From Octopus vulgaris (lineage: Eukaryota), in NCBI GenBank assembly GCA_951406725.2, contig OX597817.1, positions 64,356,001 through 64,420,000 on the forward strand: DNA of 64,000 bases, read 5' to 3'. Made by a program: the position numbers and the translations under genes. Of the stretch, positions 23,822 through 62,682 are shown one piece after another (position 1 is the stretch's first letter; every line of letters starts with the position of its first letter). The notes below the pieces were generated by a model that did no database searches, was not told where the DNA came from, and saw nothing but the letters and a program-made list of their open reading frames with translations.

Positions 23822-26800
23822 CTAAGTCCAGTTTGCCGTGGCTGGCCACTGATCTAAGAGAGAGTTTGTAGCTGCTGCCCTTAGGTTACCTTCGTACCTT
23901 GCAGTGGGTTCATCTGGGATCCCGGAAAGCAGCTTGTCTAGATGTTTTTTGAAAATGTCCACATCCGCATCATGTAGATCTCTTAGTTTTCTTGGCAGTT
24001 TGTTGAAAAGCTGAGGGCCCCTGAACCCCAGGCTATTACAGTATCTGCTCCTTACCCTGGATGTGGAAGACGGGACCTTTGGCACCACACAGTGACGTCC
24101 TGTACAGGGATTGGAACAGCTCTCAATTCCAAAATTTGGTGCTAGTCCCTCCAGGATTTTCCATATGTATATCACTGCATATCTCTCTCGTCTTCGTTCC
24201 AAGGAGTACAAATTGAGTTCCCTAAGCCTCTCCCAATAGTTCTTTTCTTTCATGGTGGAAATCCTCTTGGTGAAATGTCTTTGGATTGTCTCAAGCTCTG
24301 TGGTTAGTTTGACACTATGCGGTGACCACAGTTGGGAGCAGTAGTCCAGGCGGCTTAGGACAAATGTCCTCCATAGTGTCAACATGGTCTCGCAGTCTCT
24401 TGTCCGGAATGTCCTCAGGATCCAGCCAGTGAGTCGTCTGCACATTGTCGCCACCTTCGCGATGTGTGAAGAAAAAGATGCATCGTCACTCATGTCTATC
24501 CCCAGGTCCCGTATTGATTTCGATACTGGGATTTCGATCCCTCCTGGACCAGTATTGTTGTGTTGTAATGTATATGTGTTTACAGCTTGATATTGTAAGG
24601 CTTGAAATTTGCCAGCATTAAATTGCATGTTGTTGTCTTCAGCCCATTTGTATATGGCATCCAGATCTTGTTGTAAAAGGTCAGCATCAGCTGGGTTTTT
24701 GATTGCCTGTGCTACCTTTGTGTCATCAGCATAGCTAGTGAGGGATGTTGTTTGTGCTACCAAGGGCATGTCAGAGAGCGCCACCAAAAACAGCAAGGGT
24801 CCCAAGACTGTGCCCTGTGGCACCCCGCTTGCTATTGGTGTCTTTCCCGAGAGGGCTCCATTGGCTGCAACCATCTGGCTTCTGTCCTTCAGGAAGTCAT
24901 GTATCCACTCACCTACTTTTCCTGTTATGCCGAGTCTGAGTAATTTGTGACATATCACTCCGTGGTCGACTTTGTCAAAGGCCTTCGCAAAGTCGAGATA
25001 TACCACATCCACCTGTGAGCGATCCAGTAGTTGTTTCAGTACCCAGTCGTAGTGTTGTAACAGCTGCGTAAGGCAGCTTCTTCCTGGGCGAAAGCCATGC
25101 TGTGTGTCAGTGAGACGGTTAGTTTCTTCGAGGAACGTGATCAGTTTTTTTCTGATGATTCGTTCCATGACCTTACTTATGTGTGACGTCAGGGAGACTG
25201 GCCTGTAGTTTTTGGCCTCTGCTCTACTCCCTCCTTTGTGGATAGGGCATATGGTGCCTTCTTTTAGCGCCCTGGGCAGTTTACCGTTAGCCAAGGAACC
25301 ACTGAAGAGCTTCTTCAGTGGTCCCGCTAGGGCATGCCTGCATGTTTTTAGGAGGACTGCTGGGAATCCATCTGGTCCAGCAGCTGAGTTTATTCTCATT
25401 TCTTCTATGGCAGATATTACATCCCTCTCTGTTATGTCTATGTGGTCGATGGTTGTTGTTTGGTTTTGGAGTGTTGTGGCATCAAAGAAAACTTCTGGGT
25501 TTGTGATTTGCATGTGCCCCAGAGGGGATGTGAACACACTTTTATACTGTTCCTTTAGTATTTCACTTATCCCTTGGGGGTCCTCAGTTAGAGAGCCCTT
25601 TTTATCAAAGAGTGGGCCAATCTTGCAGTGTACCGAGGTGGTTTCTTTCGCAAATTTAAAGAAGGCTTTAGGGTTTGTTTTAATATTCTCTATGGCCCTG
25701 GCTTCTCTCTCTGCCCTCTCCTTCTCATAGGAAAGTTTGAGTGCAGTTTCCGTTTCAAAAAGTTTCAGGTGGAGTCCCTCATTGTTTCTCTGCCGTGCAT
25801 TCAGTTGTTTCGAGAGCTTAGCTCTTCGCCTCATAAGTATTTTCCTGTCTCTGGGAATAACGTTCCTATGCCCGCTGGCTTTTTTCTCCGGGACAAACTT
25901 ATGGCATATGTTCTGTATTGTTGTCATGAAATGTTGGAAATGTGTGTTGGTGTCTTGTGTGGTGATGAAGTCACTCCAGTCATGTTTTCGGATCTCTTCG
26001 TTGATCTTCTTCCAGTTTGCCTTATGGAAGTTTAGACTGGATAGGCCTGTGGTATTTTCTAATGGCTGCGTCTCAACTAACTCTCTCATACCATATATCA
26101 TTACCTCTACTAAGTTGTGATCTGAGAGAATTGTTGGTGTTACCATTATGTTGTGGATGAGCATCGGGTTGCTTGTGAAACAGAGGTCCAAGACATTCTC
26201 ACCTCTTGTTGGCCAAAGCACTGCTTGCTCCATGAAAAACTTGCGTGTGAGAGCCAACAAGGACTCTGTCTGTCTCTGTTCAAGTGATGTCATTCCAGGG
26301 AGGAGATGGCCATCTGGCCATTTGACTTTCGGAAGGTTAAAATCTCCCAGCAGTAGAATGGTGTTACCCTGGTCCAGTTTGTCCAGGACTTCTTCTATTC
26401 TTCTGAGGCTATCTTCAAACACTCCTTCATGACTAGGGGTGTCTGGTGGCCGATATGTGACACATATTACTATTTTCGGTTGTTTCATGTGTACTATCAG
26501 TGTGTCACAGACTGAGTTTGAGTGTGTCAACAGTACTATGGGTGTGACATCTTCACGGACGTACAGGGCAACCCCACCATGAGTTCTTTCCTTCCTGTCC
26601 GACCGAAAAACAGTATACTTCGGTATGTGTATTTCTGCATCTGCTATACTGCTTGACAGGTGCGTTTCAGTCAGCGCTATGCATATTGCATGGTTGCTTG
26701 TGCTCAAGTCCCTAAGGTAAGGAATTTTACCCATATTAGTGGGTTTCACCAGACCTCTGACATTCAGCAGAAGCACTGGTGAGACACCCGGGGTGTCAAT

Positions 26801-26950
26801 AAAGGCTGACGGTGTGGCACCTGGGCCGGCGTCAGCGGTGGCCACCCTGGGTCCCTTGATTGTGGTGGTCTTGAGTGCTGTTGTGAGTGCCCCTGGCTCT
26901 GAAGACGATGTATCCAGGCCAGTTGTCCCACAATTTTCTCTGCCATTTCT
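23822..26950 (-). CDS. LINE ORF2: apurinic-like endonuclease + reverse transcriptase
   Basis: APE motifs LLNVRGL, IALTETHL, VTYRPP, LLGDFNLP, LDLCFTS, LSDHNLV. RT motifs NYRPVSLTS, QHGFRPGRSC, DFAKAFDKVDH, GVPQGTVLGPLLF, YADDTK. CR1-like C-terminus LYSLERRRERY. The first 35 codons of the 1077-aa track ORF are flanking sequence. Confidence 0.95.
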   Translation of the reverse strand, partial: RNGRENCGTTGLDTSSSEPGALTTALKTTTIKGPRVATADAGPGATPSAFIDTPGVSPVLLLNVRGLVKPTNMGKIPYLRDLSTSNHAICIALTETHLSSSIADAEIHIPKYTVFRSDRKERTHGGVALYVREDVTPIVLLTHSNSVCDTLIVHMKQPKIVICVTYRPPDTPSHEGVFEDSLRRIEEVLDKLDQGNTILLLGDFNLPKVKWPDGHLLPGMTSLEQRQTESLLALTRKFFMEQAVLWPTRGENVLDLCFTSNPMLIHNIMVTPTILSDHNLVEVMIYGMRELVETQPLENTTGLSSLNFHKANWKKINEEIRKHDWSDFITTQDTNTHFQHFMTTIQNICHKFVPEKKASGHRNVIPRDRKILMRRRAKLSKQLNARQRNNEGLHLKLFETETALKLSYEKERAEREARAIENIKTNPKAFFKFAKETTSVHCKIGPLFDKKGSLTEDPQGISEILKEQYKSVFTSPLGHMQITNPEVFFDATTLQNQTTTIDHIDITERDVISAIEEMRINSAAGPDGFPAVLLKTCRHALAGPLKKLFSGSLANGKLPRALKEGTICPIHKGGSRAEAKNYRPVSLTSHISKVMERIIRKKLITFLEETNRLTDTQHGFRPGRSCLTQLLQHYDWVLKQLLDRSQVDVVYLDFAKAFDKVDHGVICHKLLRLGITGKVGEWIHDFLKDRSQMVAANGALSGKTPIASGVPQGTVLGPLLFLVALSDMPLVAQTTSLTSYADDTKVAQAIKNPADADLLQQDLDAIYKWAEDNNMQFNAGKFQALQYQAVNTYTLQHNNTGPGGIEIPVSKSIRDLGIDMSDDASFSSHIAKVATMCRRLTGWILRTFRTRDCETMLTLWRTFVLSRLDYCSQLWSPHSVKLTTELETIQRHFTKRISTMKEKNYWERLRELNLYSLERRRERYAVIYIWKILEGLAPNFGIESCSNPCTGRHCVVPKVPSSTSRVRSRYCNSLGFRGPQLFNKLPRKLRDLHDADVDIFKKHLDKLLSGIPDEPTARYEGNLRAAATNSLLDQWPATANWT
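26764..26950 (-). CDS. Possible C-terminal remnant of LINE ORF1, overlapping the start of ORF2
   Basis: Pro/Gln-rich open frame (MAEKIVGQLAW...HQCFC*) ends at TGA exactly over the first endonuclease motif of ORF2, in a different frame. Confidence 0.4.
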
Positions 26951-27799
26951 ACATATATATATATATATATAAGAATAAATGTTTTTATATATAAAGAACG
27001 TGAAATACAGGAAGGGACGAACACGGAACACAGACAAATCATTCGAAGCCTTCAATCTTCAGTCAGACACCGATGTATACACACACATACATATACACAC
27101 TAATCTACATACATACAGATGTATGTATGTATGTTCTTTTATGTGTGTCTGCATCATCGTTATCATTTAATGCCTGTTTTATATGCTGGCATGTTTTGGA
27201 CAGTTTGACAGAATCCAGTGAGCTAGAGGACTGCATCAGGACCAGTTATCAGCTTTGACATGGTTTCTATTGCTAGATGCCCTTCTTAATACCAACCAAT
27301 TTACAATGTGTACTGGGTGACAGAGATGGAAGTCAGAGGTACATAAACATGACTGTAGTAAGTGGGTTAACAATTGTGGTACATTCATGGCAGATTTGAC
27401 AGAGCACAAAGAATGGTAGCGGATATGACAGGTGTTAAAGTTGAGGTATAACAAGTCTAAGATGTGGCTCTGAGACACTGAATACTCTGAAAGAGAAGGG
27501 ATGATAATGAAAATGAGGGATGCTTTTTAATATGGAGTTGTTCCAGAGAAGGAAGGAGGCAACTGGTAGTATATAACAAAAAGGGATGATGAAATTAGTG
27601 TCAATTTCTGCTCTCAAATGATTACAGCAGTCAAGTGGTGCCATAGTTAGAAGGGTAACGAGTATTAGGAGATTGAAATGTGGAAAATTCTTGATGGGGC
27701 AGATTGGATGCAGGGACAGGGCTCAGCATGTACAGGCATAGAAAAATGCTCTTAGAACCTCAGTTTTCTCCATGATAGGTGGGTTTCTCAAGCACAGCA

Positions 27800-30907: not shown

Positions 30908-31496
30908 CCATAGTTGGTGCTGTACGTCAGTTAAAATAGATATTAAAACTGATAATTATTGGAAAAATTTTTTGCAGAGTTAATTTATTATAAAATTGGA
31001 AAATGAAAATCTTTTGATATTTATTCTCCATTACAAGTGTTTCATTTGCTAATAGAAATCACAAAGATTTACATGTCTATCTAACATGTAAGTCTTTGTG
31101 ATTCCTATTACCAAATGAAACACATGTAATGGAGAATAACTAATACCAAAAGACTTCCATTTTCCTATATTATTATATGTGTATATGTATATGCATGTAT
31201 ATACATATGTATATATCATCAACATCATCATCATTTAACGTCCGCTTTCTATGCTAGCATGGGTCAGACGATTTGACTGAGGACTGGCGAACCAGATGGC
31301 TGCACCAGGCTCCAATCTTGATCTGGCAGAGTTTCTACAGCAGGATGCCCTTCCTAACGCCAACCACTCTAGTTTGTTGCACACACGCATTTTGCTAATA
31401 CATACGCGGTGAAGCTACACATTAGCGTCGTATTTTTACGTTCACTATTTCCAGTAAATATCGGTACTTAGTTGTGCCATTTATTTACTAATTTGT

Positions 31497-31620: not shown

Positions 31621-32055
31621 TAATAATCAATTAAGTAAACAGATGGAATTGGTATAACTCTTTATCTTGTACAACAATCATTTCAACCCATCCTGCTTGA
31701 GTCCTTTATGGGTGGGATGCTGTGCATCGTATTATCTTGCATCAATTTTGCAGTCTGGGTCACATCAGGTACATTCATACATAAAGAGGTGTCTCATTAA
31801 AGATCTTGAGTTTTGGTGGTTGTGTTGTTATTTACTCTAACTGAAGTGGGCAAATAAAAACATAACTGCCAAAAGTTCAAGATCTTTAGTGAGACACCAT
31901 TTTAAGTATGAATGTACCTGATGTGACCCAGACTGCAAAATGAATGCAACATAATATGATGCACAGCATTCCACCCATAAAGGACACATGCAGGATGGGT
32001 TGTCATACAAAATAGTTATACCAATTCCATCTTCTATTTGCTTAATTGATTATTA
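31621..32055. repeat. Fold-back hairpin (arms ~210 bp, 18-nt loop) carrying an HHR
   Basis: 31621-31833 pairs with 31852-32055. Confidence 0.93.
31668..31773 (-). ncRNA. Decayed hammerhead with large stem II insertion
   Basis: Minus strand TGTAC-CTGATGT-GACCC..GGGTT-GAAA-TGATTG-TT-GTACA; TGATTG is the CpG-decay product of CGATCG. Confidence 0.68.
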
Positions 32056-37860: not shown

Positions 37861-38079
37861 TTATACATCCAGCAGAGCATTCAGATAAATTTACCCTGGT
37901 ACTTACTTATTTTTAAAAAGTTTGGTACTTATTCCATCAACCTATTTTGCCAAACCACTAAGTTATGGGGACATAAACAAACCAACACCATTCATCAAGT
38001 AGCTGGAAAACAATGCAAACACAAAGACATATATACATACATACATACATACATGCATACATACATACATACATACATA

Positions 38080-38155
<76 letters not shown>

Positions 38156-38249
38156 AGTTCAGTAAAATTTAGATTCAAATGAATATGGTACTTAAGTTAG
38201 ATACACCAGAATTTAGTATGGTGTTATCCATATAAATCCATGGGGTGAT

Positions 38250-38601
38250 TATAATCAAAATAAGCAACAAGAGTAACTTCGGTAATTTGGTACGATCGTT
38301 TCACGCAACATCATTTTATTAAATGTTGTAAGTATTACAACAGTTTTAAAATGTTGAGCAATCATCAGCCATTAATAGAGATTTTCCATTAATACATAAT
38401 TTTCATATCAATTGATAACATTATAGAGAAGGTAGATATAATGTTATCAATTGATATGAAAATTATGTATTAATGGAAAACCTCTATTAATGGTCAACAT
38501 TTTAAAACTGTTGTAATACTTACAACATTTAATAAAATGATGTAGCGTGAAACGATCGTACCAAATTACCGAAGTTATTCTTGTTGCTTATTTTGATTAT
38601 A
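38250..38601. repeat. Near-perfect fold-back hairpin (arms ~176 and ~165 bp, 11-nt loop) carrying an HHR
   Basis: 38250-38425 is the reverse complement of 38437-38601 except for about 3 substitutions and an 11-nt deletion. Confidence 0.95.
38288..38371 (-). ncRNA. Type I hammerhead ribozyme with canonical core and long stem II
   Basis: Minus strand TGG-CTGATGA-TTGC..(nested CATTTTA/TAAAATG and TGTTGTAA/TTACAACA)..GCGT-GAAA-CGATCG-TA-CCA. Confidence 0.82.
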
Positions 38602-40656
38602 TATATATGAGCTTTCACACCATTTCTGTCTCCTAAATTTACTCATAAGGCTTTGGTTGGCTTGGGGTTATAGTAAATGATACTTGCCCAAGGTGCCATG
38701 AAATGGGACTGAACCCCAAGCCATGTAGCTGTAAAGCAAGCAACCACACTGCCATACCTATGTCTATGTCTTGTTCCATTTTTACAACAGCAGAATATGT
38801 AGAATATGTTCTGAGGGAAATTTAGCAGCTATTTTCAACAAGTTGAGTGACCACATTGAAGCTTTCTGATGTTGACGTTATGAGATCAAGTCTAAACTGT
38901 AATGGATTGGAGCAGTCAACTTGTGTCCAAATATGACCACTTCTCAGATACCAATAGTACTTCATAAAGAGCAGTAGCAATGGAGATGCCACTGCACAAG
39001 CAATCAACTAGAGAACATGGCTATGACCACCTAAGTTACATCTACTGAAGGGCCTCACAAATGAAGAAATTATGGAAATAGTGAGTTTTCATCACCATAG
39101 ATGCACATGATACCCAGACTGCTACAACCACAATTAGCAGTTTTGAAAGGTTTGAATTATACTGTTCTTGAAATTAGCTACCTAGAACACATAGTGTAAT
39201 GTAGCCCAAGATACAGAATGACTGAATATTTCAATATTTTGAGTGTTAGGTAACTAGGTAGCTAGCTAATTTGGAGATCAGCATTAAGGTGTCATCATAA
39301 ATAAATTAAAAAAGTACACTAAAAAATTTCATTTAATTAATATCAAAGGATTTTCATTTCCTTCACAATAATTCCCAGCGAACTAGCACAGTGTTAATGT
39401 GTGTGTGTGTGAAGAGAAGAGAAAGAGAAAGAGATGACAGGTTGGATAGCTGAATAGTCTTGAGACATGAGCTTTCTATAAATCAATCAAATACAAGACA
39501 TAAGCAAATACTAAGACGCACAAAAACAAAAGTAATAAAATGAAAATAAATAAATAGATAAATAAATAATGAAAAAAAATTTAAGACAGACCAATAAACA
39601 TATTGAGAATATCAAGACCAGACAGGTAAAACTGAATGATCTGTTATGGCTGGTTCAGCTACAGACACAAATGTTACCATACTGTGTTGTTTAACCTCCA
39701 GGTTAACCTTTATTGAGCAGATCTATGATCAAAGACCTAAACAAGTATTCTTACTAGAATCAGAATTCCTATGATAGACTGACTTACAACACCAATGTAT
39801 GATATAATATAAAGGACAAAACCACCATAAACCTAGAAGCCAAGAACCCCTAAACAAGTTTAATTCTTTAAGAGTTAGTTTCAATGAAGGACAACTTAAA
39901 ACCATATGAACACAAGATATAAAGGGTGTACAGCCAACAAGCATATCAAAAATATACATCCATTATCAGCTGCTTAATGAATTTCAATGTGATTTCAGCA
40001 TTTTGGCAGTATTTGACGGGCTTCCGTGCTGGTGACATGTAAAAAGCACCGAACAATCGTGGCCGTTGCCAGCCTCCCCTGGCACGTAAAAAGCACCCAC
40101 TACACTTACGGAGTGCTTGGCATTAGGAAGGGCATCTATCCGTAGAAACACTGCCAAATCAGACTGGAGCCTGGTGCAGCCTCCTGGCTTCCCAGACCCT
40201 GGTCAAACCGTCCAACCCATGCTAGCATGGAAAATGGACGTTAAACGATGATAATGATACACACACATATATAAAATTACACACATGTAATTGGATGCAC
40301 TCAACACATGGCAATTAAACCATTGAAAGTTTGGCTCTTATGTTAGTTGCATTAAGCTTGTATTTCTGTTTCAATTGTCTGATGATGTGTTTCAATCCTA
40401 TACCAGCCCTATCAGGTGCATCTCAGAGGTGAAGAATTACATTTGTCTTTGGCTTTCGAGTCTGACAAGATGCCCATGGAGCTAAGCCCTTTCTGGATGC
40501 AAAACTATTGGTTACTCTACATTTAATATATATATATTTTAGAGGAAAAAGGATAACAAAACCAAGGCAGGATGAGTATCTTTAGAGTACTTAATTGGAG
40601 TAAGGTGAATTTAAAGTAATTGGTTAATTAATTAATCAATTATTTATTTGTTGGAT

Positions 40657-41479: not shown

Positions 41480-41517
<38 letters not shown>

Positions 41518-41647
41518 CATTCTGCTTACATAATGGAACTGCAAATACAATATCCTTATGTATCTCACATCTGTTTCCATTCCTCCACTTCACTCAGTAT
41601 TTCATATCTTCCCTATAATAACTATTACTTAAATATTTTCTCACACT

Positions 41648-41695
41648 GTCTCTGATGAAGGGATGTATAAAATATCCCGGAAACAGCTGTAAGAC
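41648..41695 (+). ncRNA. Minimal type I hammerhead ribozyme with canonical core
   Basis: GTCT-CTGATGA-A-GGGATGT(ATAAA)ATATCCC-G-GAAA-CAGCTG-TA-AGAC; palindromic stem III, GUA site. Confidence 0.85.
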
Positions 41696-41774
41696 CATCT
41701 CTTTATAAATGTTCTGAAAACTATTCACAGCCTTGGATTTTTTATTCCATTCTGTTGATTCTTATATATACATG

Positions 41775-47814: not shown

Positions 47815-47926
47815 GATGTATCATCTGAAGTGTACAGTATTATATATCCATCATGACTAATCTCTGGGCTATCCAAGATCTGCCATAATGGATATATAAT
47901 ACTGTACACTTTGGATAATATATATC
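47815..47926. repeat. Short fold-back hairpin (arms ~50 bp)
   Basis: AAGTGTACAGTATTATATATCCAT / ATGGATATATAATACTGTACACTT is a perfect 24-bp core. Confidence 0.9.
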
Positions 47927-62447: not shown

Positions 62448-62682
62448 GAGGTAATATTTATGCCCACTTAAAAGTTGATGTTCTGATAGAATAAACTACT
62501 CCGTGACAGATACCATGAGAGAAACTCTCGTATTGGCTTTTAGATGCAAAATGCACTTAGTGATATAAACAAGAGTGCATTTTGCACCAAAAGCCAATGT
62601 GTCAGTTTCTCTCATGGTATCTACTGCAGTATAGTTTGTTCTAACAGAACATCTATGTTGAAGTGGGGATAAATATTACTCC
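62448..62682. repeat. Fold-back hairpin (arms ~110 bp, ~14-nt loop), no recognisable HHR
   Basis: GTAATATTTAT.CCCACTT..AGATACCATGAGAGAAACT..TGCAAAATGCACT and its reverse complement. Confidence 0.88.

Follow-up and report, generated by a model that had tools for sequence, protein, structure and literature searches.

A long hairpin of nearly identical arms, with a hammerhead ribozyme core in one arm and the catalytic box deleted from the other, raises the question of whether the deletion is functional or an accident of one insertion. The first-pass annotation of this locus offered two functional answers: that selection had removed the ribozyme from the strand on which it would cut a host transcript, or that the unit behaves as a switch between cleavage and double-stranded RNA. 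Analysis of the surrounding 64,000 nt of the Octopus vulgaris assembly (the ‘window’) points elsewhere. The structure is most probably the product of one insertion of a high-copy Penelope-like element (PLE), or of a non-coding derivative, into a (TA)n tract, with a gap that is private to this copy and neutral. The architecture itself is already published, and the gap looks like a one-off mutation.

Anatomy of the hairpin and its insertion site

In the assembly, the inverted repeat occupies 38250-38601, with a left arm of 176 nt (38250-38425) and a right arm of 165 nt (38437-38601) separated by an 11-nt loop (38426-38436). Aligned globally, the arms differ by three substitutions and a single indel, with 38358-38368 (11 nt) having no counterpart in the right arm (Table 1). 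The claims that the arms are nearly identical, and that the right arm lacks the catalytic box through its sole indel, are thus borne out in the assembly, as are the motif letters given for the left arm. On the minus strand, the missing 11 nt are CUGAUGA together with four bases of stem II. Folding predicts a long hairpin of about -237 kcal/mol on either strand with the 11 nt bulged out, and the duplex from a read-through RNA would be 165 bp.

Table 1. Features of the insertion and its flanks (window positions)
Feature	Position	Strand	Basis
Left half of older SINE-like repeat, interrupted by the element	37905..38028	+	
(CATA)n/(TA)n microsatellite inside the older repeat; insertion target	38029..38155	.	
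94-nt extension (‘tail’) of left copy, absent from right copy	38156..38249	-	contigs, 4/4 runs
Body of left 5′-truncated copy, including the 11-nt loop and four more bases	38250..38440	-	arm alignment, family contigs
Type I minimal hammerhead, predicted cut after 38291	38288..38371	-	alignment, descriptor, folding
Turnaround: TATA, 11 nt, TATA; the family sequence offers 4 nt of microhomology at the turn	38422..38440	.	contigs, folding
Inverted 5′-truncated copy ending at the inner family terminus, lacking 11 nt at the junction of 38493 and 38494	38437..38601	+	
Arm substitutions	38273/38578, 38307/38544, 38381/38481		global alignment
Short (TA)n remnant and right half of interrupted older repeat	38602..38769	+	

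The limits 38250-38601 hold for the inverted repeat but not for the element, which is larger. Its extent can be read from contigs of four public runs aligned to 38160-38460, a segment that takes in the left copy and the loop and reaches 24 nt into the right arm. The DNA runs are X1 and X2 (organism A) and X4 (organism B); X13 (organism A) is taken as an RNA run by guess only. With 3864 contigs aligned from X1, 2286 from X2, 3227 from X4 and 99 from X13, the family is of very high copy; summed contig depth gives letter shares only and has no meaning as a copy number. Contigs lose rare variants, and a single-copy gap lies far below the display threshold of 1%. One X13 contig record was left out, since it listed 0 differences where every X13 contig differs.

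Family contigs cover 38160-38249 in all four runs, and in all four there are loose ends at 38164 that lead into TA-rich sequence, in agreement with the window from position 38156. The family has another end near 38250; X13 has loose ends there, and three contig pieces start exactly at 38250. The loop is also family sequence: six displayed contig pieces traverse it, five ending at 38440 and one at 38438, and three of the loop-crossing contigs continue with 4, 23 and 4 letters unlike those of the window. The left copy runs from 38156 to 38440, 285 nt on the minus strand; its shorter, inverted partner on the right begins in a TATA common to both copies and extends to the inner terminus. There is no cover of 38446-38460 in any of the four runs, an absence that is uninformative for the turnaround because rare variants drop from contigs. 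Of the displayed positions that are polymorphic in the family, 38307 is the only one at which the arms disagree, a pattern that fits one template for the two. Opposite-strand joints occur in five other copies, with differing breakpoints.

The ends of the inverted repeat are both in TA, as in a palindromic MITE or a foldback DNA transposon with a TA target duplication. Such an origin is extremely unlikely, however, given that the left copy extends 94 nt past the repeat, that contigs pass 38440 with other letters, that inversion points in other copies lie elsewhere and that the family ends are asymmetric and variable. Terminal inverted repeats that are fixed across the family, which would mark a MITE or foldback element, are not seen.

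The element splits the (TA)n tract of an older SINE-like repeat, the collinear halves of which form its flanks. The window has five other copies of this repeat in which a microsatellite joins the halves across 83-154 nt, whereas here they are about 570 nt apart; a sixth pairing of halves, at 482 nt, spans further repeat copies. Any target-site duplication (TSD) is indistinguishable from the microsatellite. The window holds no second copy of the hairpin’s family, nor a same-strand tandem partner, in its 64 kb. Parts of 38160-39390 are present in 20 of the 24 runs listed for that interval, none of them an RNA run, with a best share of 0.69, values that could reflect an empty site as well as ordinary polymorphism.

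The insertion would have begun with reverse transcription primed in the (TA)n tract, starting at the outer end, 38156, and the cDNA would have halted after about 285 nt at 38440. TATA:TATA pairing could then have folded the cDNA end back, with the 11 nt as the loop, to prime synthesis of a self-copy, which would have been resolved at the inner terminus (the equivalent of 38250). Resolution at that point would leave a tail on one side only. The 11-nt gap would have arisen during fold-back copying or later, and would be selectively neutral. The anatomy, the high copy number, the one-sided tail, the native loop, the interrupted repeat and the folding energies are the observations behind this account, and from them we infer the fold-back priming. 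The earlier description of a young, inverted pLTR pair of a PLE with a hammerhead core in one arm is supported.

The hammerhead motif and its family

A type I hammerhead descriptor, built on the hammerhead core motifs, was run over the whole window. Its two matches, at 38368 on the minus strand and at 41652 on the plus strand, each include a palindromic stem III. None of 100 block shuffles yielded such a palindromic match, and plain matches averaged 0.43. CUGANGA and GAAA are given in the methods passages of PMC8557442. Rfam has no match in the window at the gathering score and, at E up to 10, no hammerhead, the matches being sub-cut-off hairpin-shaped miRNA models and two weak unrelated models.

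The predicted hammerhead at 38368 comprises a 3-bp stem I, CUGAUGA at 38368-38362, GAAA at 38302-38299, a stem II that is a 59-nt hairpin opening with U.U, and a self-complementary stem III at 38299-38292. The core elements CUGANGA, GAAA and UH are found in the left arm only and are absent from the right. Its first description as ‘intact’ stands for the core nucleotides but not for stem II, where U.U takes the place of the closing G10.1-C11.1 pair and a U-A pair is broken at 38307. By depth, the family is mostly U.U; position 10.1 is G in 6-23% and position 11.1 is C in 5-20%, and canonical C variants are shown by loose ends at 38302 and 38308. The family varies in stem II at 38361 and 38303-38307, and its further variants there preserve pairing (U-G to U-A and G-C to G-U).

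The U-A pair disrupted by the left-arm letter at 38307 is retained by the family majority and by the right arm; the left-arm letter may be a 9-14% family variant. At all three differences the right arm carries the family-majority letter (99.6-100% at 38273, 87-100% at 38307 and 99-100% at 38381), leaving the left arm in the minority state at 3/3 substitutions where an even split is expected, a result with a two-sided chance of 1 in 4. The left-arm motif is a partnerless minimal hammerhead with a weakened stem II, and neither arm is likely to cleave.

The catalytic bases seem to be conserved across the family. The 40 of 99 rows displayed give 39 variable positions. In a post hoc comparison, not one of them is among the 12 conserved bases of the core (P 0.16), nor among the 24 bases that the core makes up with stems I and III (P 0.023), and N7 is the only variable base in CUGANGA (47-90%). 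No RT or GIY-YIG coding sequence is linked to the family. The ORF is absent from this copy, all three sense frames across 38156-38440 containing stops, and it is from structure that the master element is taken to be a Penelope. A 21-base motif of the family has 0 loci in metagenome and viral contigs alike. The window’s sole RT belongs to a LINE with an AP endonuclease, a young element with an open frame of 1078 codons (AP endonuclease and RT domains) at 23822-27058 on the minus strand.

Loose ends at 38271 (25 contigs in X1 and 16 in X4), together with a 36-letter replacement at window 38268-38337, suggest a subfamily with the common 3′ end and tail and with different sequence in place of the cut site, GAAA and stem III. 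Runs of two organisms (X2 and X4) contain a tandem duplication of 33 nt (38337-38369) that takes in the CUGAUGA box. The second descriptor match, with its core at 41652, belongs to an unrelated hammerhead-bearing stump at 41516-41763 (plus strand), between two (TA)n tracts. It has a 4-bp stem I, CUGAUGA, a GGGAU/AUCCC stem II with an unpaired A and G at its foot, and a palindromic stem III; the stump is not similar to the first family, and the window contains it only once.

Predicted burial of the motif and the 11-nt gap

The head-to-head geometry means that, on either strand, the antisense arm is transcribed before the ribozyme. Folding puts the penalty for adopting the hammerhead at 87.3 kcal/mol in the hairpin and at the same 87.3 kcal/mol in a nascent RNA that ends just past the ribozyme; it is 6.7-8.2 kcal/mol in the arm alone and 119.2 kcal/mol in an undeleted model without the gap. 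Pairing of the arms would, on these energies, silence the motif whether or not the gap is present.

A plus-strand host RNA would thus have gone uncut even before the gap arose, which removes the pressure needed if selection is to have fixed the gap because plus-strand RNA with an intact ribozyme would be cut. Read-through RNA would bury the undeleted ribozyme by about 119 kcal/mol, the gap is a single case (n=1) among thousands of contigs, and loss of the core is not enriched in other copies (2/5, see below). Nor was a host exon found: a Pfam scan of 289 of the 341 short frames gave nothing above the curated cut-off and two weak matches (E 0.002-0.003), although a large intron may be present. 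Selection becomes workable only if transcription runs outward from the turnaround or if a protein aids folding. There are grounds for both. According to PMC3846280, pLTRs may contain bidirectional TATA promoters, and TATA occurs twice in the turnaround, so that outward RNAs from the turnaround could escape the duplex; part of PMC11167929 describes one PLE hammerhead that cleaves with its protein present. Retrozymes are also reported, in one section of bioRxiv 10.64898/2026.07.22.740005, to be depleted from introns and exons, and the family seems to conserve the motif, with none of its variable positions on the 24 bases. Even so, removal of the box by selection against cutting of a host transcript is very unlikely and the claim is not supported.

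The other functional answer, a unit that toggles between self-cleavage and long dsRNA, fares worse. The minus-strand fold does leave the core unpaired in a bulge of 11 nt, but stems I, II and III and GAAA are locked in duplex, and an energy gap of about 87 kcal/mol is too large for a switch. RNA of the family may be edited: over 38160-38440, T>C differences (A>G on the element sense strand) make up 27/83 places in X13, whereas the three DNA runs have 10 of 59-63 (Fisher P 0.03-0.05), a comparison made without DNA of the same animal and in which one contig with 31 differences may explain much of the excess. The excess may reflect A-to-I editing of RNA from other copies, and so does not concern this hairpin. 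A switch is therefore about as improbable as the DNA transposon, and this claim, too, finds no support.

With neutrality as the favoured reading, how special is the position of the gap? Among 166 placements of an 11-nt gap, five (3%) remove the whole box, 17 touch it, 39 touch a conserved core base and 55 touch the core or the short stems. Other copies show five skips, of which two delete CUGAUGA (1.33 expected, P 0.40) and three affect any core base (2.84 expected); this control set is small, and one of its skips is probably a replaced segment. The expectation that core deletions are non-random in other copies thus meets with no enrichment. Against the neutral reading, clean microhomology is absent from the gap borders, and the upstream border is exactly the boundary of stem I and the core. 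A microhomology origin through the GCT repeat was considered and rejected, as it predicts a loss of 10 nt and not of 11.

Of the bases in the gap, seven precede the stem II hairpin and four belong to its foot, an arrangement that would suit a polymerase that stalls or jumps at the foot of stem II, clustering breakpoints at the 5′ edge of the ribozyme without any selection. Other copies have an inversion joint at 38368, the 33-nt duplication at 38369 (X2, X4) and skips at 38357 and 38360; all five inversion partners start at 38368-38398, and, of 22 breakpoints in other copies, 4 are no more than about 4 nt from the gap borders (1.5 expected, P 0.054). The clustering is, however, post hoc, drawn from few events and not significant, the loose ends at 38371 resemble a diverged subfamily and not truncation, and no identical gap appears in the 12 of 18 indel rows shown. 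A jump of this kind is unlikely to be the explanation. A compound of these ideas, in which the stem II foot is a recurrent jump site, inverted partners lose the box far beyond chance and outward RNAs from the two-way TATA turnaround, one cleavable and the other dead, are open to selection, is slightly less likely again.

The gap might also be no mutation at all. The hairpin could be real and the gap, perhaps with some of the substitutions, an error of sequencing, assembly or polishing in a high-copy fold-back. Nanopore base calls are reported to be missed at inverted duplicates (PMC7229812), and thousands of near-identical contigs on the hairpin stretch make mis-mapped polishing possible. The absence of the gap from the indel rows shown fits an error, but a single-copy gap falls below the 1% display threshold and its absence says nothing. 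Against an artefact, the symmetry stops at the true family terminus and the flanks are collinear, which a library fold-back would not give, and the gapped arm is otherwise error-free, with the family-majority letter at 3/3 differences. An error accordingly has only a small probability, and a private, neutral loss is the better reading.

Indels are not peculiar to this hairpin. Self-BLAST finds four older fold-back repeats in the window (31621-32055, 30986-31177, 62451-62679 and 47816-47923; 78-85%), the first of them adjoining a (TA)n tract, and these may be decayed inverted insertions of other families. In three older fold-backs the arms have indels too (38, 8 and 6 gap positions) and carry no hammerhead core.

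The locus is most likely to be one more stump of a common retroelement, and to exemplify fold-back through 4 nt of microhomology, with the tail on one side only. For the role of PLE hammerheads the family is of modest use, being very abundant, with catalytic bases that seem to be kept, a U.U majority and a canonical minority. If losses of the core from inverted partners proved recurrent or strand-biased across the genome, they would be direct evidence that the ribozymes fold or cut in cells; and if the stem II foot is a jump site, thousands of inverted pairs would provide a genome-wide read-out of hammerhead folding or activity during Penelope transposition. A literature search outside most subscription journals found nothing on core-specific deletions in inverted pLTRs, on the hairpin’s family or on the activity of U10.1.U11.1 hammerheads.

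Comparison with known systems

Animal non-LTR retrozymes, as described in parts of PMC7229834 and bioRxiv 10.64898/2026.07.22.740005, are like this element in being short, non-coding and AT-rich with a type I hammerhead. However, retrozymes are head-to-tail tandem units, each with a hammerhead; no such array occurs within the window, and the pair here is head-to-head without a tandem partner.

Poseidon PAc of the green anole is another system for comparison. In the passages concerned (Frangieh et al. 2024, PMC11167929), two reverse-transcription starts define its tail, and its ribozyme, which cleaves with the protein, is dispensable for insertion in vitro. Two start sites with a tail, and AT-rich insertion sites, are shared with the present family. 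The Poseidon PAc ORF is there said to start at stem II, whereas in this copy all three sense frames contain stops.

The motif itself resembles the minimal hammerheads of metazoan PLEs, in which helix III is palindromic and small, as suits dimers (Cervera and de la Pena 2014, PMC4209133, in the section cited). Shared are the CUGANGA and GAAA boxes, a short helix I, a long helix II and a palindromic helix III. The same section gives pairs of hammerheads on opposite strands 100-700 bp apart, no detectable in vitro cleavage by a single minimal hammerhead and low cleavage by dimers. It also gives the G10.1-C11.1 pair as conserved; here U.U replaces it, and helix II is a 59-nt AU-rich hairpin.

The architecture matches that of the inverted pLTRs of endonuclease-bearing (EN+) PLEs. 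Passages of Craig et al. 2021 (PMC8557442) describe 5′-truncated PLE copies with an adjoining inverted copy and a tail of 30-40 bp at one end, and microsatellite targets that mask the TSD. Those of Arkhipova et al. 2013 (PMC3846280) ascribe head-to-head palindromic PLE junctions to self-priming, report Penelope copies disabled by deletions and give, for Pen2a_Av, a 15-bp overlap between the inverted and direct pLTRs; in the present pair, the left copy exceeds its partner by 15 nt at the 5′ end. The features common to such PLEs and this element are a head-to-head, inverted, 5′-truncated partner, a tail at one end, an AT-rich (TA)n target without a discernible TSD, a type I hammerhead near the 3′ end and copies with disabling internal deletions. 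The differences are the lack of an ORF in this copy, a tail of 94 nt compared with the 30-40 nt in print, and a near-symmetric truncation, which turns the familiar inverted pair into an almost perfect hairpin.
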